Of a stretch of DNA of 64,000 bases, positions 11,801 to 63,140 are shown one piece after another. The notes beneath the pieces are model-generated. The model was not told the DNA's origin, ran no database searches, and worked only from the letters and a program-made list of their open reading frames with translations. The position numbers were made by a program, and so were the translations under genes. Source of the DNA: Balanoglossus misakiensis (lineage: Eukaryota > Animalia > Hemichordata); the NCBI GenBank assembly GCA_040954595.2, contig CM082591.2, positions 3,581,957 through 3,645,956 on the forward strand, read 5' to 3'. Numbering within the stretch: position 1 is the first letter of the stretch; each line of letters begins with the position of its first letter.

Positions 11801-13324
11801 TAACTAGGCTTGAAAAAGATATGGATTCGACAAATCAAAAGGGACAGCTTGTATTGAACATTTCCTGAAAACGGTATTGAAATAAATGTCTTCCTTTCAA
11901 ACTAACCAAAGGCCAAATACAACGTAGAGTCTTTTACAGGCGCTGATAATTCAAAGTCAAAAAGCGATTTTATCTTCACTGGCAAAGATAAAAAGGTTCG
12001 CTTCATTCAGTGCTAATGTAGCTTTATTGGTGACGTAAATATATATTCAAACTAGGCATAAATTTTATTGACATATAATAAAATCAATATACAGTGAATA
12101 CTTCTTCTGATAAAAGTTTCATCGTCGCTAGCCTGATTCCATCACCACACGACAAAAGGTCGATGCATGAATTTTGCCACATTTTACATGTTTCAATAAT
12201 TGTCTATGTCTCATATTGACGTTCATAACATTAACACATGATGGTTAAAAAAGGGGCGATCACCTGACAAAAGCCAATCTTTGCAAAATCTATTGACAGG
12301 TTCAGGTGGCACTACTTTTTTTGCAAATTGTGGTTGGCCTTTAGTGTAAGTCTATCTTTATGACAAATTTAAATGAACATAGATTGACTATATATTGGTC
12401 GATTTACCTCCCATTCTATTGAACAAAACGGCCATCATTTTTTTCTATTTATTTTGCACGTTTGGATTCGTCGTCTCTACATTGCATGGCCGGGATGACT
12501 GAAACAGACGAAAGTCAACAAATTTTCTATTCGATTCTAATTAAATAAGAGTGAAACCAAGTGGGATTTGATACAGAAGATCTGAACAGACCTATCTATT
12601 TAATTCAATGATTATATTTAACAAAGGGCATCAGGGGTGTTATCTTATAGAGGCCATTGGCCTTGCCTCTGGCCTTTTCATTTCAAAGAGAGATATATTA
12701 CGTTTCACGATTGCTGATATAAGCGCAGTAAATCGAAAACACACACCACACTTCCTTTCTACTTTATTTCCATTAGATTTGCTTCTATTCTCTCGCACAA
12801 AGTATGCATATATATTAGTCTTGGAATTAATTAAACGATGGTGCCACTTCTACTGAGATCAGACCCTTTCCTCGTATTTAAATTTGTCATGCATTAATAA
12901 AGGTGATAACCCAGGATAACGCTTTGACCCAGCGAATTATAGCTGCGTGATAAATTTTATCGATTACAGTAATCCCGTTTGACATCTCTGCTGATTGGTT
13001 GACTTTCTCATATTTCTTGCAAGTAATCTATAACCCCCTGGATAAAACCTTTGCCAAAGTTATCAATTGATTTCTGTGATTTATTACTGACCTGGATTAT
13101 TTTAATATATATCTTTATTGATGTCTTTTTCCCTTAGAAACACCGAACACACCTGAGGCATTTCAGACTACTGTGGTACATGAACAAAGATTATTGGTAG
13201 GTTGGAAGAAGTATTTTATCATGTTAGTCTGCACATGATGTGTTCGTTCAGAGAACATTCACCCTCTGGACAAGGCAGCTCCATCTGAACACGACTGTAC
13301 GTTAGCTGTGTATTGTTGTTGGCC

Positions 13325-14305
13325 ATGGCGTCAAACTTCACAAGTTCAGATTCTGATGCCACGAACACCATTCACGATACCCTGTTTAACGTTGCCATCG
13401 GAGTGGTGGGGATATCCGGCATCCTGGGGAATTCCCTGGTGTGCTGGGTTTTCCTGCGCATCAAGTCCATGCGCACGGTGACCAACATGTTCATCTTGAA
13501 CCAGTCCATGATAGACCTCGTCGGGTCGGCCGTTTTCCTTCTGAGTTACCTCGGTCCGACCATAGATCCACTGATAGACGACGTCAGCAGCACTTTGTTC
13601 TGCAAGTTCTGGGTGTCGCTCTACCCGCTGTGGTCTCTCTTCGACGCCTCCTCGCTCAACCTGACGGCGATCTCCTTGGAGCGGTACCTGGCCATAGTCC
13701 ACCCTGTGGCCCACCACAACAAGGTCAACAAACGGGGCGTGACGAGCATCATGGTGGCGATCTGGTTCTCGGGGTTCGTGGTGGAGTGGTTCTGGCCGTA
13801 CGTGCACTACGTGGAGAACGGGGTCTGCACGAACGCGTGGGACGACCAGCATCTGGAGAGGTTCGTTGGTGTTGTGGTGTTCATCGTCGAGTACGCGCTG
13901 CCGATGACCGTCTTCGTCTACTGCTACTTGAAGATATTCTTAACACTCAGGCAGAAAGTAAAGGATCATCAGGCAAACTCGATCTCTTCAAACCAAGGTG
14001 GTGGCACACTGTCGAAGGCGTCAAAGAACGTCACAAAAATGCTCTGCGTGGTTGTAGTTACGTATTTCCTGTGTTGGACTGTACCGTCGGTGGCATACTT
14101 TCAGAACTGGGTCTTTGGCGGCCCGCTGGATTGGAACGGGTCTTTCTACAAATTCACTGTCATATCCGTTTTCTTTAATGTCTGCTGTAACCCCATAATC
14201 TACGCCCTGATGTGGAATCACTTCAGGAAGGCCCTCAGGCAGGCCCTCCATTGTGGCGGCAAAAACAGGGTTAGTCCAGACCAAAGTTTAGAAACACAAA
14301 CATAG
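13325..14305 (+). CDS. Class A (rhodopsin-like) 7TM GPCR, orphan, galanin/allatostatin-receptor-like invertebrate expansion; 326 aa, intronless CDS
   Basis: Seven hydrophobic segments; GN (TM1), NQSMIDL (TM2), ERY, ECL2 Cys, CW..P (TM6), NPIIY (TM7); N-glycosylation site NFT. ATG 13325 in gccATGg context preferred over the TTG start at 13313. Candidate upstream acceptor gtctttttcccttag ends at 13137. Confidence 0.95.
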   Translation: MASNFTSSDSDATNTIHDTLFNVAIGVVGISGILGNSLVCWVFLRIKSMRTVTNMFILNQSMIDLVGSAVFLLSYLGPTIDPLIDDVSSTLFCKFWVSLYPLWSLFDASSLNLTAISLERYLAIVHPVAHHNKVNKRGVTSIMVAIWFSGFVVEWFWPYVHYVENGVCTNAWDDQHLERFVGVVVFIVEYALPMTVFVYCYLKIFLTLRQKVKDHQANSISSNQGGGTLSKASKNVTKMLCVVVVTYFLCWTVPSVAYFQNWVFGGPLDWNGSFYKFTVISVFFNVCCNPIIYALMWNHFRKALRQALHCGGKNRVSPDQSLETQT

Positions 14306-29382: not shown

Positions 29383-30387
29383 TTAAGTCCTTGTAACGGC
29401 CTCGTTGGATTGTTCCGGCGATACCTGATTTCCTTTGCCTTTGCACCAGAATGTCTCTTTCAGGGCTCGTCTGAAGTGGTCCCACATTAACGCATAAATT
29501 ATTGGGTTACAGCACACATTGCAAAAGACAGATATCACGGTGAACTTGTAGAAATCGCCGTTCCAATCCATGGGTCCACCAAACACCCAGTTTTGGAAAT
29601 ACGCCAGCGAAGGGACGGTCCAGCACAAGAAGTACGTGACGACGACCACACACATGGTCTTCGTGACGTTTTTGGAGGCTTTGTTGAGGACCCCGTCGGC
29701 CTGGCTCGAGGAGAGATTGTTGGCCTTGTGGTCGATGACGCGCTTGCGCAACACGCGGAATATCTTCAGGTAGCAGAAGACGAACACGGTCATGGGGAAC
29801 GCGTACTCCACGACGAACACCAGCACGCCGATGAACCGCCGCAAGTGGTCGTTGGTCCACTCGTTGCGACACACCCCGCCGTCGTTGAAGTGCACGTACG
29901 GCCAGAACCACTCGTTGACGAAGCCGGCCAACCAGATGAAAGGCACCACGCAGCGCACCTTATTGATGTCGAATTTGTTGTGGTGCCTCACCGGGTGGAC
30001 GATAGCGAAATAGCGCTCGATGGTGATCGCGCAGAGGTTCAGCGACGAGGAGTCAAACAGAGACCACAGCGGATAAAGCGATATCCAAAACTTACACAGT
30101 ATAGTACCGCTGAGCCCCTTCGGGATGACGTCAACGGACGTGCCCAGGTAACTCAGCACAAAAATAAAGGAGCTACTCAGATCGATAATCGACTGGTTCA
30201 ATATAAACATATTTGTCACTGTTCTTAGCGATTTCACCCGAAAGAAAACCAGACATACCAGAGCATTTCCCACGATTCCAAGGGTTCCAACCACTCCAAT
30301 GCCAACATTGAAGAGAACGTCTTTGATTCCTTCATCGGTGACATCATCAGATGTTGTATTTGTCGAAGAGTTCATTTCGTCCATCAT
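29383..30387 (-). CDS. Class A 7TM GPCR, paralogue of the 13325-14305 receptor; 334 aa, intronless CDS
   Basis: Same motifs (GN, NQSIIDL, ERY, CWTVP, NPIIY); colinear with the other receptor and roughly two-thirds identical by eye; N-terminal sequons NSS and NTT. Confidence 0.95.
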   Translation of the reverse strand: MMDEMNSSTNTTSDDVTDEGIKDVLFNVGIGVVGTLGIVGNALVCLVFFRVKSLRTVTNMFILNQSIIDLSSSFIFVLSYLGTSVDVIPKGLSGTILCKFWISLYPLWSLFDSSSLNLCAITIERYFAIVHPVRHHNKFDINKVRCVVPFIWLAGFVNEWFWPYVHFNDGGVCRNEWTNDHLRRFIGVLVFVVEYAFPMTVFVFCYLKIFRVLRKRVIDHKANNLSSSQADGVLNKASKNVTKTMCVVVVTYFLCWTVPSLAYFQNWVFGGPMDWNGDFYKFTVISVFCNVCCNPIIYALMWDHFRRALKETFWCKGKGNQVSPEQSNEAVTRT

Positions 30388-30424
30388 TCTTTATAGATAC
30401 CACCTCTAAAGACGAAGATAAGCC

Positions 30425-56222: not shown

Positions 56223-57452
56223 TCAGGGTCTAGTCATCCACGAGAAATTACGGTGAACTGTTTCTGCCAAGAGGCGGTCGAAGGGCCTGTAAAAGTCCTT
56301 CAGATCTTGAGTGACTTTCTCGTCAATTGCCGGGTGTTCTCGCCCCTTGTTCAGGGGCAGACAGTGGTTTCTCGGGAAAGTGACGCAGTGGAGGCCCCTC
56401 TCCTCGTTAAACTCGAAATGCTCCTCCCGGAAAAAGTGCTGCAGGCCCAGGAAGGTTTCGATTCTCTGGAGTTCCGTTGTGGGATCCTCAGATAATCTGT
56501 CTCCGTCCACGAGGTGTATTCTCTCGCGGGGGATGTAGTCATACCACCGCAGCAGATGCTTGATGTAGACCCCCAAATCGATGATTTCGTTCAGTGTGTC
56601 GAGACCCATCTCTCGGTGCATCACAGATTTCTCGAACGTGTCCGCGATGTACTTGTGCAGGCCGAAGACTTCAATTTCGCTCGTCCGCTTTCGGTTATAC
56701 TCAAGGTAGTCAGACACCGCCCTGCGCACGGGGTCGCACAAGGAAATGATGAATTTCGTCTCCTTGGGCAAGTCTTTGGACAAGATCTTCGGGAGGTCGT
56801 GCGGCCGGAATAGGTACGACGGGGTCTTCTCCATGGTTACCTGGTAGGGCGTGGTGTACGGCATCTGTTTGCGGTAAGAGTCGTAGCCGGCCCTGAACGT
56901 TTTCGCCGTGTCGAAGAAGTGAACTTCCAGAATCGGCCCGGTTATGTTCGGGTGGGTGGTCAGAAAATGCTGCAGGGCTCCCGTGCCGCATTTCCTCACC
57001 CCGAGTGTGATGACCTGCGGGAGCCGTTGCAGGCACTCCCGGCGTTTCATCTCCCCCTTGTCGAGCAAACGTTTCGGCACGTACACTGGCATCCCGGGCT
57101 CGTAGCAGGAACTCCCGAACTTGGCCTTCAAGTAGGCGTCTTCCTCGAAGCTTGCTGGCCACGTGACCTCAATCCTCTCTTCGGCGGTTGGCTCTTCATC
57201 CACAAGAGAAGAATACAGATCTTCATCCGAACCATCGGACATGGACATGCTCGCCATGACGACCAGTGGATCCTCTGTGGCGCGCGGCCGCGCTGTTTCC
57301 ATGGAGCGCTGATGGTATCCATCGCTGACATCGACCTTTTGCTCGGGACACTGCATGTCGATGGACAGGAGGAAGATGGACACGTAACAGGTCGAGACGA
57401 GGAGAAGAAAGAGGAGGGAATTCTTCAAGAATAAACATGTCCGGCCGATCAT
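56223..57452 (-). CDS. HS3ST: Heparan sulfate glucosamine 3-O-sulfotransferase family protein (type II Golgi membrane sulfotransferase), 409 aa, intronless CDS
   Basis: N-terminal TM anchor (LLFLLLVSTCYVSIFLLSI), acidic stem, then RLPQVITLGVRKCGTGAL (5'-PSB loop), EVHFFD (catalytic Glu/His/Asp), EKTPSY, DPVRRAVSDY (3'-PB) and C..C..KGREHP. Orthology within the family is not resolvable here. Confidence 0.93.
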   Translation of the reverse strand: MIGRTCLFLKNSLLFLLLVSTCYVSIFLLSIDMQCPEQKVDVSDGYHQRSMETARPRATEDPLVVMASMSMSDGSDEDLYSSLVDEEPTAEERIEVTWPASFEEDAYLKAKFGSSCYEPGMPVYVPKRLLDKGEMKRRECLQRLPQVITLGVRKCGTGALQHFLTTHPNITGPILEVHFFDTAKTFRAGYDSYRKQMPYTTPYQVTMEKTPSYLFRPHDLPKILSKDLPKETKFIISLCDPVRRAVSDYLEYNRKRTSEIEVFGLHKYIADTFEKSVMHREMGLDTLNEIIDLGVYIKHLLRWYDYIPRERIHLVDGDRLSEDPTTELQRIETFLGLQHFFREEHFEFNEERGLHCVTFPRNHCLPLNKGREHPAIDEKVTQDLKDFYRPFDRLLAETVHRNFSWMTRP

Positions 57453-57891
57453 CCTTTCCTGTGGACGGACGTTGCTACAGACCTACACGCAGTCTGGTTG
57501 TGTCTGTCAACTGTAGTTTCTCTTTCCCTGCAACCTGTCCACGCATGTGGCGCCTGTGGTGCCGACATTTCATTGAAAAGAGGACATGCCCAGCCCATAA
57601 AATGATAAATGGTCGTCCCTTTTCTCCCAATCTGTGCACAGATTTGCGCGAGGGGAGCTTACAACTGAATTAGCATAAACATATATGTCGAAACGTTGAA
57701 TACGAAAAAAGTGTCACTCATCATGTAACATCTGGTCGGGCGTCGAAAAGCCACCTTAAAATAATCACAATAAAAAAATACATGTGACATGCTGGGATCG
57801 TTTCTTCTTTTCCACGATAAAAATTCGTGCTTACATGCAGCACCAATGCATCAAAGTATTATCATATACACGTTCAAAGGTGTAGTATTTA

Positions 57892-58204
57892 AGCAATAAA
57901 ACACCCCCAGCCATGGTATATCACGAGATTTTGACCAGTTCACGACATATACGCACGAGCGATAGCGAGTGCGTATATGGAGTTGAACTGGTCAAAATCG
58001 AGTGGTATACCATGGCTGGGGGTGTTTTATTGCTATTATATTATGCCAGTATATTGAAACTTTGCATAAAACATTTTTAAAAGGAATTTTCTTTAACTAT
58101 GATATATGACTGTGGTATATGGCTAATATATCACGGTCACGTGTCGTGTCTCGACCAATCAAATAGCGTGATTTACACCATCAATATACTGGTATAATAT
58201 AATA
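57892..58204. mobile_element. Non-autonomous palindromic (MITE-like) element
   Basis: Imperfect long palindrome 57892-58034 (agcaataaaacacccccagccatggtata.../...tataccatggctgggggtgttttattgct) followed by a second inverted pair, tattatattatgccagtatattga (58034-58057) / tcaatatactggtataatataata (58181-58204). Confidence 0.75.
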
Positions 58205-58239: not shown

Positions 58240-58245
58240 TTTATT
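58240..58245 (-). terminator. Candidate polyadenylation signal AATAAA for the ArsS-like gene
   Basis: The minus-strand AATAAA I could find downstream of the SECIS, about 300 nt past it. Confidence 0.5.
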
Positions 58246-58548: not shown

Positions 58549-58633
58549 GCTTCCACATCAGAGTGGCATCGAAGATTGGCTACCTATTATTTCAAAGTTT
58601 TACGCCAATCTTGTCATAAACTGAGTTGAAAGC
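58549..58633 (-). promoter_or_regulatory. Eukaryotic SECIS element (selenocysteine insertion sequence) in the 3'UTR of the ArsS-like gene
   Basis: Minus strand reads GCTTTCAACTCAG-TTT-ATGAC-AAGATTGGC-GT-AAAA-CTTTGAAATAATAGGTA-GCCAATCTT-CGAT-GCCACT-CTGATGTGGAAGC. It has an AUGAN/NGAN core (58617-58613 / 58571-58568), a perfect 9-bp helix II, apical AAAA 11 nt after the core, and helix I (GCUUUC..AC.UCAG / CUGA.GU.GGAAGC). Confidence 0.9.
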
Positions 58634-58871
58634 AACAAATATGGTCTGGCCTCGTAACATCATGATTCATGTCACATATGATTCATATGCTAGACATCGT
58701 GACTGAAATTTGTAATTATACTTCACATAAAAGTTACAAACAATTGCTGCATTACAAACACCAACGTAAGCTGCCCAAATTGTATACATTTTGGAATTCT
58801 GCGAGTACTCTTTTTGAACTCTGACCCCATGACAGCATGGTTACTGAGCTCTGACCCCATGACATGCACAG

Positions 58872-59026
58872 TTACTGTGCAGTGACCCCCTGTCAGCTGC
58901 TTCCCATACCGGCTGTGCATCCAAAGCAATGGTTGTCAGTTGCGATTCTGATATCGTGGAGATCCTCTGCCGATTCAATATCCCATATTGAAAGGAAATT
59001 AGATTTCACTTGTCTGTGATGAGCAG
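58872..59026 (-). CDS. arsS: ArsS-like gene exon 8, coding part (…IATDNHCFGCTAGMGSSUQGVTAQ*) containing the Sec UGA
   Basis: Acceptor gtctcttttaatag|CT; reads CAT TGC TTT GGA TGC ACA GCC GGT ATG GGA AGC AGC TGA CAG GGG GTC ACT GCA CAG TAA. Confidence 0.92.
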
Positions 59027-62000
59027 CTATTAAAAGAGACAGAAACATTTAGTCATTTTTTTCTGATAGTCCTAAACAGTATTTTGGTGTCTGCAATTCC
59101 CTTGTGAAAATGTTCTATAGAATAAACATTATCATACTCACCCAATTTCTTTGCACTAACACCAATATCTAGCTGTTGATTCAAATCACAGTCAAACAAT
59201 TTGCCATTGTAGTTGACACTTAGTGTATTGTAACACATCAGACCTTCGGCAGTAGTAGGGTTGAAATTACGAACCAACAAATCCATGTACCCTTGCAACT
59301 CATTTCTGGAAAGTAAGAGAGGACATTGAACTTTGTCACTTTATTTTTATTGTAAAGTCATAATGAATACACGTCCATCTTAACTGTAGCGTGGCAACGA
59401 AGCATACACGTTAATCTGATTGATATATGATTTCTTACTGTGTATCTCTTTTTGTGTATGTGTGTTTGTGGATGTCTGTATGTATATTTCTTCCTTACCT
59501 TCTGTACAGAAAATCGGCGAATCGTTTGATGGGCACATTGGTGAGTGTGAACAGTCTGTTGAACTCTATCCCGAAAGTCTCCAGCAGTTCTTCCTTGTAT
59601 TTCTCCTCTAGTTCCTTCTGAGGTGGTGGAAGAAAACCACCTGGCAAGGTATAATATCATACAGACCATTGGTTGAAACACAGTGAGAAAGTTTTTTGGG
59701 GGGACTTACACGAAAGCACAAAAAGTAAAACTGAAAATATTGCGATTGTGATGCCAACAAGCCACCATCAGCTGTAACAACGACTACTTACCCAATGGAT
59801 TATAAATCAAATTGAGCTCCAGACCAGTACCATCTTTGCCGTATCCCAACGAATTCAGCACAAGCAAAGCTTGGATACTTTTATCGAATACACCCTGACC
59901 CCTCTGCAAGTTGACATTCTTCTTACTGAAAAATAAATACAGGTAGATTATTTTAATGATACAATGTCAAGTCACACGTATTTATGATTTAACTCATTAG
60001 AGTCCCATTGGAAAGCTACTTGCACATATAAATACTTGCTGACATCATTTTAGGTACATACCAGAAATTGTTATTGAAATTTTGACTGGTTTTATTCTCT
60101 TTCTATGCAAGGTGACAGCAGATCAGAGCAAAAGCACTCGAAAATAATCAAAATTACATATTACTCTATTTCATAAAAACGGCATTAAAAACAGAGTAAG
60201 ATCATTATCATCTACTGGGGGCGCTATAACACAGACAGAAGTTTGTTTGTTTCTGTGATCAGAACATCTGTCATCATGACTGGGGTGTTTTTAACCAGCC
60301 ATATGGCAAACAGTCTAACAGGTGTTAATCTGAATAGTTTTTTTTTTTGCAAAGTCACACTATTTTTATCACTGACTTATAAATACAGAATTCTATTTTT
60401 TTTAAATATATGTTTCCCAGAGACTGATTTCCTTCTTCTTGGTATATTTACAAAACGTTTTTTTTTTCAATGCTCTAAGTCAAAGCCGATATAAATTAAA
60501 GTAGACATTTTTGCTTTATATTTGTACTTAAATTACATTGACATATAATATATATGTAAAAATCAGGAAAATTACAATATTTTAAATTTTGAGTAAACCA
60601 CTAACTTAAATGTTCACAAAATTTAAAGCAGAAATACTATTGAATACAAAAACTGCAATATCTAGTCAGACATTTACCTGTAGCATGGCAACGAGGCAAA
60701 AACTTTAATCTGATTGTCAGCTAAGAATTTAGCGGTGTCCTCCTGACCTGGCTCCAACAATCCTGTCAGATTGCACCTGTCAATCACTTGTTTGCCGAGG
60801 TCTCTTCCAGACTTGGCGAGATACCGGAATTCCTGGCACAGCTCTGGAGCACCCCCTGGCATGAAGAGAAAAATATCCAGACATTTATCACTTATTTTCA
60901 TATTTTATATTTAATTTTTTTTAATTTTAATTTACACACAAGCTCAGGCCCCAGACAAAAATGGCAGCTGACAACACTGAAATTCCAATTGGTTTACATC
61001 TTGTCAAAAACAAAAATTAGTAAAATTTTTATTGACAAATACTAAGTTGTGAACCCTAATACATTTATGCATACTACAGATGGTGTGAGCTCAGCACACA
61101 CATGAAATCGTTATATCAAAATAGTCTGCATAACAAGATGGTCACCTAACTAATTTACATACCCTCTAACTTTTGACTTATTTCCCTGGGGTTTATTGTC
61201 CTATGTAAACAACTTCAGTTTCCCATAAGACTTCAAAATGCATGATTAAATGCCTAGTCATAGCTACTATTCTTGACAATTTCCGACCAGCAAAAAATAC
61301 ATGGGCAGTATATTTCATTATATACTCCATTCTTCACAATAAAAAATGCAATATCATCATTACCGGTACAGATATTCAAATGAGCCCAGCCCTAGACACT
61401 GAAACAGCCCTGACCTGTGATATTGGATAACAGTATTTAATCTAAGAAAACATAACCTTTGACATCAGACAACATAACCTTTTCAAATTGCACTGGGCAA
61501 GTGCCAAAACACAGTCAGACTGTGTCAATAATCTTATCATAAAATGTAACAGTGTGTGTAATGTACTTGCTTTTTGTCATAACTGTGTTAAACAACAACT
61601 GTCTCGTCTCGTGATCTGGCCATATGTCAAGTCACAATCACTTCAGAATCTGGTTGCCTGTGTTATGACATAGAACATTTATACCTACAACCACCACAAC
61701 CATGGAAACTCCAAAGTCTGCACTGGAGGTGACAAGGGGGGGTTAAAATCACAACATGGAAAGCTATGTGTTTTTACCTGTCAAATCTAATGTATGAATG
61801 GATGGACTCTTCCGAAGGAGGTCAATGCACTTTTCAGCTGTTTGCCTGCTCATCATTTCTTTCCTCTTGGGGGAGGACTCAACATGGCAGTGGTTGCAGG
61901 CTTGGTTGCAATACAATCCAATATTCAACTGAAGTACGTCTGTCTGTCTTCTCTTCAAGAGACCTTCCACTATAAAAAAATATATAATCATAATTGTATT

Positions 62001-63140
62001 AGTTAGGATATTAAACTCATTAAACTTTTTTCACATTTTATAATTTTTTCTGTTAAAAAGTTTCAGAATGACCCATCATCACTGAAGCTTATGAACTCCC
62101 ATTTCTTAAACATGGCAAAAATCGGCCATCTTGAAATTGTGTCGGCCATCTTGAAATTGTGTCGACCATATGAGATTTTCATCACTCACTTAGGTAGTCA
62201 TTGCAGCAAGCACAGTCAGCTTTCCTCTAAAATATCATTGGATGACATTACCTGACATTTCATGCTTCTTCAGCTGTTGTTTAACAAATTCTCTGAAATG
62301 CGGCACTCCTAGATTGTGCAATGCTCTCTGCCTTTGCTTTCTCTCCTCTCGAGTCAGTTTAGCCTGGCCAAGCTTTCTCAGGTTTTCAGCTGTGATTTTG
62401 AAGTCCTCGTTTTCTTCCATGTACTTCAGTGTTTCGGGAATTAGAGAGCCCTGTATACGACGAAAGGATCAATCAATCAATCAATCAACTGGTGATTTAG
62501 CAGTAAAGGCAAACCCTACCAACCAAAACAGGTTGCACAACTCATAGTTTAAACCTCAAACGTCAATGTGTGATGTTTGAGGTTTAAACTATGAGTTATG
62601 CAACCTGTTTTGGTTGGTGAGTAAAGGACCAACGAAAACCAACAATGCACAATCGCATATTTTGGACCTTCTATAACAAAGTGAAATTCGTCCTCAAGTA
62701 AAGACACGTATGTCAGTTTCACTTTTTTATCACTGGAGCGCCTATAACTCTACATCCGATTTTAAACAGATTGTAATTTGTACGGCGTTTCATATCCCAA
62801 AACTTTCGTTTATATTGGGGGATTCGGGTGAGGGGTCGCAATTAATCCAGTATTAATCCGTTTAGCCTACCTGAGCTCTTTTCTCGAGGTTCTTCAGTCC
62901 AATCCATGTTGGTTCTCTACGCGGCGGGGGTTTCTCGGGTCGCTTGAGTTGGTGTTGGTGCGTGTTGACGTCGGTGTTGTAGTCTGGTAGCTGTGTACTC
63001 TTCACGGCTGCTTCGCGCATTTCGCTGGACGTGCTCAAGCGAGACGAAGCTATCGGCTGGATGAGCGACAATATGCGAGGAGTCCGACAACATATTGTCA
63101 TACTTCGCGAAACGTGTCTTTGCGTGAGAAATAACGCCAT
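58872..63140 (-). CDS. arsS: ArsS-family radical SAM / DUF3641 selenoprotein (arsenosugar biosynthesis radical SAM homologue), 8 exons, 477 aa, Sec at residue 471; complement(join(58872..59026,59142..59305,59499..59640,59792..59925,60678..60855,61778..61969,62252..62450,62871..63140))
   Basis: All 7 introns are GT..AG with consistent phases (0,1,1,2,1,2,1); exon lengths sum to 1434 nt = 478 codons. The spliced product has LQLNIGLYCNQACNHCHVESSPKR (CxxxCxxC), DLTGGAPE, IDRCNLT, ASLPCYS, QRGQGVFDKSIQAL, LNLIYNPLGGFLPPPQ, FNRLFTLTNVPIKRF, LMCYNTLSV..GKLFDCDLNQQL and HCFGCTAGMGSS[TGA]QG, recognised as ArsS/TIGR04167 + DUF3641 motifs. TGA at 58893-58895, TAA at 58872-58874. Confidence 0.93.
59142..59305 (-). 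CDS. arsS: ArsS-like gene exon 7 (NELQGYMDLLVRNFNP...LMC...DCDLNQQL...)
   Basis: Acceptor ctcttactttccag|A, donor TTGG|GTGAGT. Confidence 0.93.
59499..59640 (-). CDS. arsS: ArsS-like gene exon 6 (GFLPPPQKELEEKYKEELLETFGIEFNRLFTLTNVPIKRFADFLYR; start of DUF3641 region)
   Basis: Acceptor ccttgccag|GT, donor GAAG|GTAAGG; the correct frame differs from the ORF-track call 59358..59681. Confidence 0.93.
59792..59925 (-). CDS. arsS: ArsS-like gene exon 5 (KKNVNLQRGQGVFDKSIQALLVLNSLGYGKDGTGLELNLIYNPL)
   Basis: Absent from the ORF track and translated by hand; acceptor tatttttcag|T, donor TTGG|GTAAGT. Confidence 0.93.
60678..60855 (-). CDS. arsS: ArsS-like gene exon 4 (GGAPE motif to ASLPCY)
   Basis: Acceptor ttctcttcatgccag|GG, donor TACAG|GTAAAT; joining to exon 3 rebuilds DLTGGAPE. 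Confidence 0.95.
61778..61969 (-). CDS. arsS: ArsS-like gene exon 3 (radical SAM CxxxCxxC motif)
   Basis: Acceptor tttttttatag|TG, donor ACAG|GTAAAA; encodes LQLNIGLYCNQACNHCHVESSPKRKEMM...TLDLT. Confidence 0.95.
62252..62450 (-). CDS. arsS: ArsS-like gene exon 2 (GSLIPETLKYMEENEDF...KKHEMS)
   Basis: Acceptor tatacag|GGC, donor TCAG|GTAATG; open and in phase with exons 1 and 3. Confidence 0.87.
62518..62618. repeat. Near-perfect ~100-bp palindrome in intron 1 of the ArsS-like gene
   Basis: accaaccaaaacaggttgcacaactcatagtttaaacctcaaacgtca, short loop, then tgatgtttgaggtttaaactatgagttatgcaacctgttttggttggt; arms of about 47 bp with 2 mismatches. Confidence 0.9.
62871..63140 (-). CDS. arsS: ArsS-like gene exon 1 (putative mitochondrial presequence and linker)
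   Basis: ATG in aacATGg context; donor CAG|GTAGGC at 62870; 90 codons, phase 0; first 39 aa are R/S/T/L-rich with no D or E. Least conserved exon, so least certain. Confidence 0.78.

Follow-up and report, generated by a model that had tools for sequence, protein, structure and literature searches.

A putative mitochondrial ArsS-family radical SAM selenoprotein encoded by the acorn worm Balanoglossus misakiensis

The prototype of the TIGR04167 protein family is ArsS of Synechocystis, a synthase of dimethylarsinoyl-adenosine (DDMAA), the first arsenosugar precursor. Published work describes a redox-neutral radical reaction by which ArsS adenosylates dimethylarsenite (DMA(III)), giving DDMAA (PMC13598754; bioRxiv 10.64898/2026.04.29.721666), already lists TIGR04167 as a prokaryotic selenoprotein family with a GxxU motif (PMC13188914), and reports that algae make arsenoribosides and that the arsenosugars of marine animals arrive via the food chain (PMC10456119). 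Here, we analysed a 64,000-nt window of contig CM082591.2 from the acorn worm Balanoglossus misakiensis (GCA_040954595.2), for which an earlier note, made from the sequence alone, had proposed that the animal may form arsenic-adenosyl bonds itself. We favour, with moderate confidence, the reading that this window carries a host gene of the acorn worm for an ArsS-family radical S-adenosylmethionine (SAM) protein, likely with selenocysteine (Sec) at residue 471 and predicted to be mitochondrial, that would make DDMAA.

An ArsS-family gene in the acorn worm genome

The gene runs on the minus strand from an ATG at 63140 to a TAA at 58872, and its eight spliced exons form a single open frame of 477 codons plus the TAA, in which the sole internal stop is a TGA at codon 471. 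All seven introns are GT-AG introns of 115-922 nt with consistent phases, and GC content is 46% in the coding sequence versus 34% in the introns. The earlier note had also counted seven introns, and this total is correct, but the interval that it gave starts at exon 2, so that the number holds only when exon 1 and intron 1, which lie outside that interval, are counted. The features of the gene are as follows.

62871..63140, minus strand: exon 1, residues 1-90, with the ATG at 63140, a presequence-like N-terminus and then the conserved LPDYNT motif (residue 51) that begins the eukaryote-type extension
62870-62451, minus strand: intron 1, between exons 1 and 2
62252..62450, minus strand: exon 2, helical N-terminal extension common to animal and many algal/protist ArsS and absent from the bacterial ArsS examined
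61778..61969, minus strand: exon 3, start of the radical SAM core; TIGR04167 positions 2-61, E 1.8e-21
61887..61910, minus strand: CxxxCxxC motif (C177, C181, C184), residues 177-184, predicted ligands of the SAM-binding [4Fe-4S] cluster
60678..60855, minus strand: exon 4, with the GGAPEL, RCN and PCY motifs; TIGR04167 positions 59-119
59792..59925, minus strand: exon 5; TIGR04167 positions 118-165
59499..59640, minus strand: exon 6, start of DUF3641 (PF12345); TIGR04167 positions 165-211
59142..59305, minus strand: exon 7; TIGR04167 positions 209-268; C396-x9-G-x4-C411 (codons 59235-59233 and 59190-59188), the first pair of ligands predicted for a Twitch-like auxiliary cluster
58872..59026, minus strand: coding part of exon 8; TIGR04167 positions 264-298; C460/C463 (CFGC; 58928-58917), U471, TAA at 58874-58872
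58893..58895, minus strand: in-frame TGA, inferred Sec471, followed by QGVTAQ-stop and aligned to Cys in orthologues
58557..58625, minus strand: eukaryotic selenocysteine insertion sequence (SECIS)-like element, with an AUGA core at 58617, a 9-bp helix II, unpaired AA and a 3' GA
58240..58245, minus strand: candidate polyadenylation signal AATAAA, the first past the SECIS-like element

Scanned singly, exons 3-8 match TIGR04167 at successive model positions with E values of 1.8e-21 to 3.5e-7, and the bits summed over these six separate scans come to 347.5 for model positions 2-298, a sum and not a whole-protein score, to be read beside a curated cut-off of 300 bits. The Ptychodera orthologue, 77% identical to the window protein, reaches 400.8 bits on the same model, and eight of eight homologues tested exceed the cut-off. 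The window protein combines Radical_SAM and DUF3641 domains with a Cys-rich C-terminus, and over 311 aligned columns its core shares 45% identity with a Pseudanabaena ArsS from an annotated arsM-arsS operon. By these sequence tests, the window protein is an ArsS member, as the earlier note had proposed.

Among 197 aligned sequences, the SAM-cluster positions C177, C181 and C184 are Cys in 197, 196 and 197, respectively. The cysteine motifs that the earlier note had listed as conserved are all present in the window protein (RCN at residue 248, PCY at 278, LMC at 396, DCD at 411, CFGC at 460/463, and U471) and CxxxCxxC is indeed kept, but two of them are not strictly conserved: in a set of 32 named animals, taken as one protein per species and leaving out incomplete records, isoforms, additional copies and any other Mytilus or oyster species, the RCN cysteine is kept in 23 and the PCY cysteine in 31, the latter being His in the cyanobacterial ArsS of the arsM-arsS operon. 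Since both cysteines vary across ArsS, neither is essential.

Two further observations concern gene copies. An animal-like paralogue (P0302) has altered motifs, with CxxxCxHC followed by L and with a changed DCD and C-terminal tail, and is possibly a diverged or inactive copy. Ptychodera (P0002/P0269) and the Pacific oyster (P0225/P0226) each have two near-identical ArsS records, either local duplicates or haplotypes, as against a single copy in the window.

Probable selenocysteine, predicted auxiliary cluster and N-terminus

At the TGA column of the window gene, 115 of the 197 aligned homologues have Cys and 80 have a gap, and the six codons past the TGA (QGVTAQ) match the tails of the Cys forms of echinoderms, algae and cyanobacteria (QGTT/QGAT or similar). 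Eight of the 32 named animal proteins, from seven echinoderms and Priapulus, carry Cys at this position, and the other 24 stop exactly before the inferred Sec codon, which we flag as an annotation error; because these shorter records were compared as protein and not as DNA, their TGA is only inferred. Three metagenome loci read TGA-QGTTA-stop directly. The SECIS-like element at 58625-58557, with its canonical core, lies 255 nt past the stop codon and ahead of the first AATAAA, and matches Rfam SECIS_1 at 28.7 bits (E 0.0068 in a 2.6-kb search), below the Rfam gathering score of 35. Across the 64-kb window this is the sole SECIS_1 match (E 0.17), and a strict SECIS pattern scan of both strands found only this site, with none in 20 simulated 64-kb sequences; its folding energy is unremarkable by itself (z -1.73). 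SECIS_1 gave no match in four eukaryote-like metagenome loci, three of which have the TGA. Residue 471 likely carries selenocysteine, and both the recoding and the eukaryotic SECIS put forward in the earlier note are supported, the former by conservation that continues past a TGA aligned to Cys and the latter by an element unique in the window.

At positions 396, 411, 460 and 463, 194-195 of the 197 aligned sequences have Cys (195 each for C396 and C411), and a C-x9-G-x4-C...CxxC pattern occurs in all 32 named animals. This spacing resembles that of the Twitch/SPASM motif, for which ligand positions are known in EpeE and anSME. In an AlphaFold model of the Cys form from Acanthaster, with a mean predicted local distance difference test (pLDDT) score of 82.5, the CFGC block lies in a confident helix (pLDDT 91), and only the last 10 residues, including the Sec equivalent, score low (47), which may partly reflect alignment rows that end at the UGA. 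The best structural matches of this model are SPASM/Twitch enzymes (Z 16-19), several of these alignments running to model residues 473-478 and reaching the CxxC. Profile comparison with a MoaA-like protein covered the SAM core and nothing beyond, sequence comparison to EpeE and anSME gave sub-threshold stretches only, and a sequence search for a solved ArsS structure found none. Twitch domains hold one auxiliary cluster (PMC10177961), and we read C396, C411, C460 and C463 as likely ligands of such a cluster, which would leave Sec471 as one free nucleophile on the tail. The flexible Cys/Cys/Sec tail imagined in the earlier note is not supported in that form, given the position of CFGC in a confident helix and its pairing with C-x9-G-x4-C in 32 of 32 named animals, a pattern that looks more like an auxiliary Fe-S site.

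Compared to bacterial-type ArsS, the window protein has ~165 extra N-terminal residues, and its N-terminus aligns to that of Ptychodera from residue 1. Its first 25 residues include four Arg and no acidic residue, and in the homologues with a conserved LPD[YF]NT motif, 27-64 unconserved residues precede this motif. A basic, acid-poor N-terminus is the composition of a mitochondrial presequence; using a rule that asks for three or more basic residues and no more than one acidic residue among the first 25, we found this composition in 30 of 36 N-termini (the window protein, 34 animals and Chromosphaera) versus 201 of 2658 internal windows (7.6%). The window protein is predicted, from this composition, to be imported into mitochondria. 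The presequence-like part is followed by a helical extension of ~110 residues common to animal and algal ArsS, which has no Pfam match and for which a structure search of the Atlas returned nothing above 0.77.

Distribution, proposed role and rival explanations

The closest relatives of the window protein are those of other enteropneust hemichordates, Ptychodera (77% identity) and Saccoglossus (74%), identity between animal phyla being ~60%. Named orthologues come from Sycon (a sponge), Priapulus, two copepods, Owenia (an annelid), Lineus (a nemertean), Lingula (a brachiopod) and many bivalves and, among deuterostomes, from three amphioxus and, brittle stars excepted, every main echinoderm class; one is present in the holozoan Chromosphaera too. 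Of 7998 scored candidates, the best 120 included no name from vertebrates, insects, nematodes, cnidarians, gastropods or tunicates, a weak negative as many of these rows are nameless. A scan of genome contigs for ArsS gave two loci, and a metagenome scan gave 80, mostly bacterial, with few eukaryotic and none identifiable as animal.

In an IQ-TREE phylogeny of 63 sequences (support given as SH-like approximate likelihood-ratio test/ultrafast bootstrap), hemichordates (100/100), amphioxus (100/100) and echinoderms (97/78) form groups within a eukaryotic clade (96.7/100, with two loci outside), itself nested among bacterial ArsS that include ArsM-flanked loci. The tree holds ArsS sequences only, with no non-ArsS outgroup, and its root was placed arbitrarily on a cyanobacterial ArsS; within it, the window protein falls inside the ArsS clade with ArsM-linked bacterial members, whereas a place outside that clade would, by the earlier note, have told against its proposal. 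The claim of that note that this is a host gene is upheld by the seven spliceosomal introns, by the animal neighbours and by the placement with Ptychodera and Saccoglossus (100/100). Since orthologues occur across invertebrate phyla and group by phylum, the ArsS gene is old in animals. One FastTree run grouped all animals together (0.907), another left copepods outside, and IQ-TREE did not separate animals from chlorarachniophytes. We claim no donor or order of events, and the animal gene may stem either from inheritance from early eukaryotes or from early uptake from an alga, neither of which we favour.

The surroundings of ArsS elsewhere link it to arsenite methyltransferases. Of the 80 metagenome loci, 21 have an ArsM-like gene next to ArsS (12 of the 32 loci of at least 5 kb), arsenosugar-type glycosyltransferases (TIGR04283/TIGR04282) lie near it in 9 and 5 of the 80, and ArsM or a glycosyltransferase stands beside it in 18 of the 32 longer loci. 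Among 17 long ArsS representatives, picked by length from 150, six combine ArsS and an arsenite-methyltransferase-like domain in one fused protein, with either part coming first. AS3MT has been reported in Saccoglossus, Branchiostoma floridae, Lingula, Crassostrea gigas and Strongylocentrotus purpuratus (PMC5398495), and all five of these animals carry ArsS in our data. DDMAA itself has been isolated from the kidney of Tridacna, a giant clam (PMC9919133). The arsenic-adenosyl capacity proposed in the earlier note is thus plausible from ArsM neighbours and fusions and from AS3MT in five ArsS carriers. As a separate observation, ArsS is also fused to a flavin-reductase-like or a CMD/AhpD-like domain (P0345, P0385), which hints at a reductive partner of ArsS.

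In the mechanism that we propose, the UGA would be read as Sec via the 3' SECIS, and the Arg-rich, acid-free N-terminus would be a cleaved mitochondrial presequence. C177/C181/C184 would hold the SAM cluster and C396/C411/C460/C463 a single Twitch-type auxiliary [4Fe-4S] cluster, while Sec or Cys on the short mobile tail would be the free nucleophile, binding DMA(III) or aiding the reduction of DMA(V), its pentavalent form, and presenting the arsenical to the adenosyl radical. The 5'-deoxyadenosyl group of SAM would then be joined to dimethylarsenite, giving DDMAA, with DMA supplied by the animal's AS3MT or by the breakdown of dietary arsenicals. A precedent for the role proposed for Sec is ArsL, the C-terminal Cys motif of which binds As(III) (bioRxiv 10.1101/2024.02.01.577332; 10.64898/2026.04.29.721666). 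The link between selenium supply and arsenic drawn in the earlier note is weakened and at most modest, because echinoderms use Cys in place of Sec, as do eight of the 32 named animals in total, and because the known ArsS reaction is redox-neutral. We consider DDMAA synthesis a fairly probable role in vivo. More tentatively, and short of an even chance, many phyla of marine invertebrates, ranging from sponges to amphioxus, may have inherited a mitochondrial ArsS selenoenzyme and may make DDMAA from AS3MT-derived dimethylarsenite, in which case some of the arsenosugar and arsenolipid in seafood, and perhaps of its arsenobetaine, would be animal-made and the pathway would have been lost in vertebrates.

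Several points weigh against this reading. The SECIS-like element scores below the Rfam gathering score, and the presequence call is a composition rule with internal windows as an imperfect control. At the sequence level a Twitch domain has weak backing: SPASM PF13186 was found in three of 38 C-terminal pieces (best E 0.0056), and a C-terminal profile searched against the PDB matched no radical SAM chain. ArsM and glycosyltransferases were both missing from 14 of the 32 longer metagenome loci, the fused ArsM-like domains score under their curated cut-offs, and the 64-kb window, to which the search was confined, contains no arsenite methyltransferase and no TIGR04283/TIGR04282 arsenosugar glycosyltransferase. 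No AS3MT turned up in the crustaceans examined in PMC5398495, while copepods carry ArsS; vertebrates have AS3MT, yet no vertebrate was among the best 120 ArsS matches. Giant clams host algal symbionts (PMC10456119), so that their DDMAA need not be host-made. The literature searched, which covered few subscription journals, yielded no assay of an animal ArsS.

Considering these points, the main competing explanation, which we find rather unlikely, is that animals retain the long form to act on something else, for example a methylated species of selenium or sulfur or a housekeeping metabolite of mitochondria, any arsenic adenosylation being a side activity. Identity of ~60% over animal phyla suggests steady selection and agrees with such a role, as do the retention of ArsS in the freshwater bivalves Potamilus and Dreissena, the N-terminal domain without a recognised family, the mismatched ranges of ArsS and AS3MT in crustaceans and vertebrates, and a predicted mitochondrial site that differs from the cytosolic one of AS3MT. 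However, the core motifs all match those of ArsM-linked bacterial enzymes, ArsM neighbours and fusions recur through the family, and arsenoriboside-making algae (PMC10456119) belong to groups that share the long form. A different question is raised by the model of the earlier note, compatible with the same product, in which C460, C463 and U471 form a mobile three-thiol/selenol tail that binds or reduces arsenic, with no auxiliary cluster. The Cys-rich tail of ArsL (RCCLKC), which binds As(III) rather than an auxiliary cluster (bioRxiv 10.1101/2024.02.01.577332), and the weak Twitch/SPASM sequence evidence lend it something, but we judge it improbable given the confidently modelled helix around CFGC, its constant company with C-x9-G-x4-C in named animals, and structural alignments to SPASM/Twitch enzymes that run through it.

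Two simpler explanations fare worse. If the TGA were a true stop, the protein would end at GMGSS with no terminal Sec or Cys, exactly where 24 of the 32 named animal database proteins end, and the SECIS score below the gathering threshold and the lack of SECIS_1 matches in the four other loci would be accounted for; this is very improbable in view of Cys at the same column in 115 of 197 orthologues, the matching tail codons, the three loci with TGA-QGTTA-stop, a SECIS-like element unique in the window, and the listing of the family as a GxxU selenoprotein (PMC13188914). An origin from a contaminant, a symbiont or recent horizontal transfer would fit a family that is mainly bacterial and algal, with no vertebrate, insect or nematode name among the matches listed, but we give it almost no credence: the gene has spliceosomal introns and animal neighbours, it groups with Ptychodera and Saccoglossus, other animals also cluster by phylum, and a recent event is already refuted.

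The other genes in the window are two rhodopsin-family G-protein-coupled receptors (GPCRs) and one sulfotransferase, which agrees with the animal neighbours described in the earlier note.

13289-14302, plus strand, and 29386-30390, minus strand: a pair of similar open frames for rhodopsin-family GPCRs, oriented oppositely
56226-57482, minus strand: a single Sulfotransfer_1 open frame, directly downstream of the ArsS gene

The sulfotransferase frame resembles a heparan sulfate 3-O-sulfotransferase. Within the ArsS gene, an alternative upstream acceptor of exon 8 (59062) was rejected because its frame runs into a stop, and intron 6 contains, at 59380-59422, a 43-nt copy (86% identical) of the 3' end of exon 4 (60674-60716) that still reads like that exon end and is a degenerate duplicated fragment or pseudo-exon. 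Near-perfect inverted repeats forming hairpins like those of miniature inverted-repeat transposable elements lie at 62518-62618 (intron 1; 48-nt arms, 96%) and 57883-58043 (beyond the 3' untranslated region; 60-nt arms, 88%) and draw sub-threshold microRNA matches, and short tandem duplications were seen just past the stop codon (58815-58864; 20 nt, spacing 30) and in intron 2 (62122-62161; 20 nt twice).

Comparison with known systems

A radical SAM selenoprotein named 'RSAM' was reportedly described in the Pacific oyster selenoproteome by Baclaocos et al. in 2019 (J Mol Biol). The oyster ArsS orthologue ends at GMGSS, and we take it to be probably the same protein; to our knowledge, that report made no link to arsenic chemistry, mitochondria or hemichordates. 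Two bivalve records already bear the automatic name 'Arsenosugar biosynthesis radical...'. The ArsS family and its Sec are thus already known, and the animal-wide, presequence-bearing form and the idea that invertebrates start arsenosugar synthesis are absent from the literature that we searched, which, short of most subscription journals, held nothing on animal ArsS or on endogenous arsenosugar synthesis in animals. The accessible main texts of PMC3473315, PMC7539508, PMC13134290, PMC4729200, PMC7435645, PMC12693785, PMC10456119 and PMC12608789 do not mention the ArsS family in animals; the supplements on an 'FeS oxidoreductase' family (PMC7539508) and on transfer candidates (PMC4729200) may bear on priority.

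If our reading is true, animals would make the first arsenosugar precursor themselves instead of only eating it, and an arsenic branch would be added to the radical SAM chemistry of animal mitochondria. With a conserved orthologue of DDMAA synthase in oysters, mussels, scallops, sea cucumbers and acorn worms, the question of where seafood organoarsenic originates becomes testable, and the Cys forms that echinoderms naturally have can be expressed without Sec machinery.

Among the described systems, SPASM/Twitch enzymes (SkfB, SuiB, BlsE, EpeE and anSME) are the top structural matches, with a root-mean-square deviation of 3.3-6.0 over about 240-257 residues, but they share 12-23% identity and act on other substrates, the auxiliary cluster being only predicted in ArsS. 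ArsL, which makes arsinothricin, resembles the window protein in forming a C-As bond from SAM and in using a C-terminal Cys motif for As(III), but it moves an aminocarboxypropyl and not an adenosyl group, has an RCCLKC tail and belongs to a separate family. Bacterial ArsS shares Radical_SAM plus DUF3641, CxxxCxxC, the C-terminal cysteines and the GSS-C/U tail, whereas the window gene is spliced, lies in an animal nuclear genome, has a eukaryotic 3' SECIS-like element and the longer N-terminus, and has no adjoining arsM or glycosyltransferase. The long-form ArsS of algae and protists (brown algae, cryptophytes, chlorarachniophytes, Triparma and Chromosphaera) have the same N-terminal extension and alternation of Sec and Cys and belong to the same eukaryotic clade; the window copy differs from them in that it sits in an animal, where arsenosugars are described as dietary (PMC10456119).

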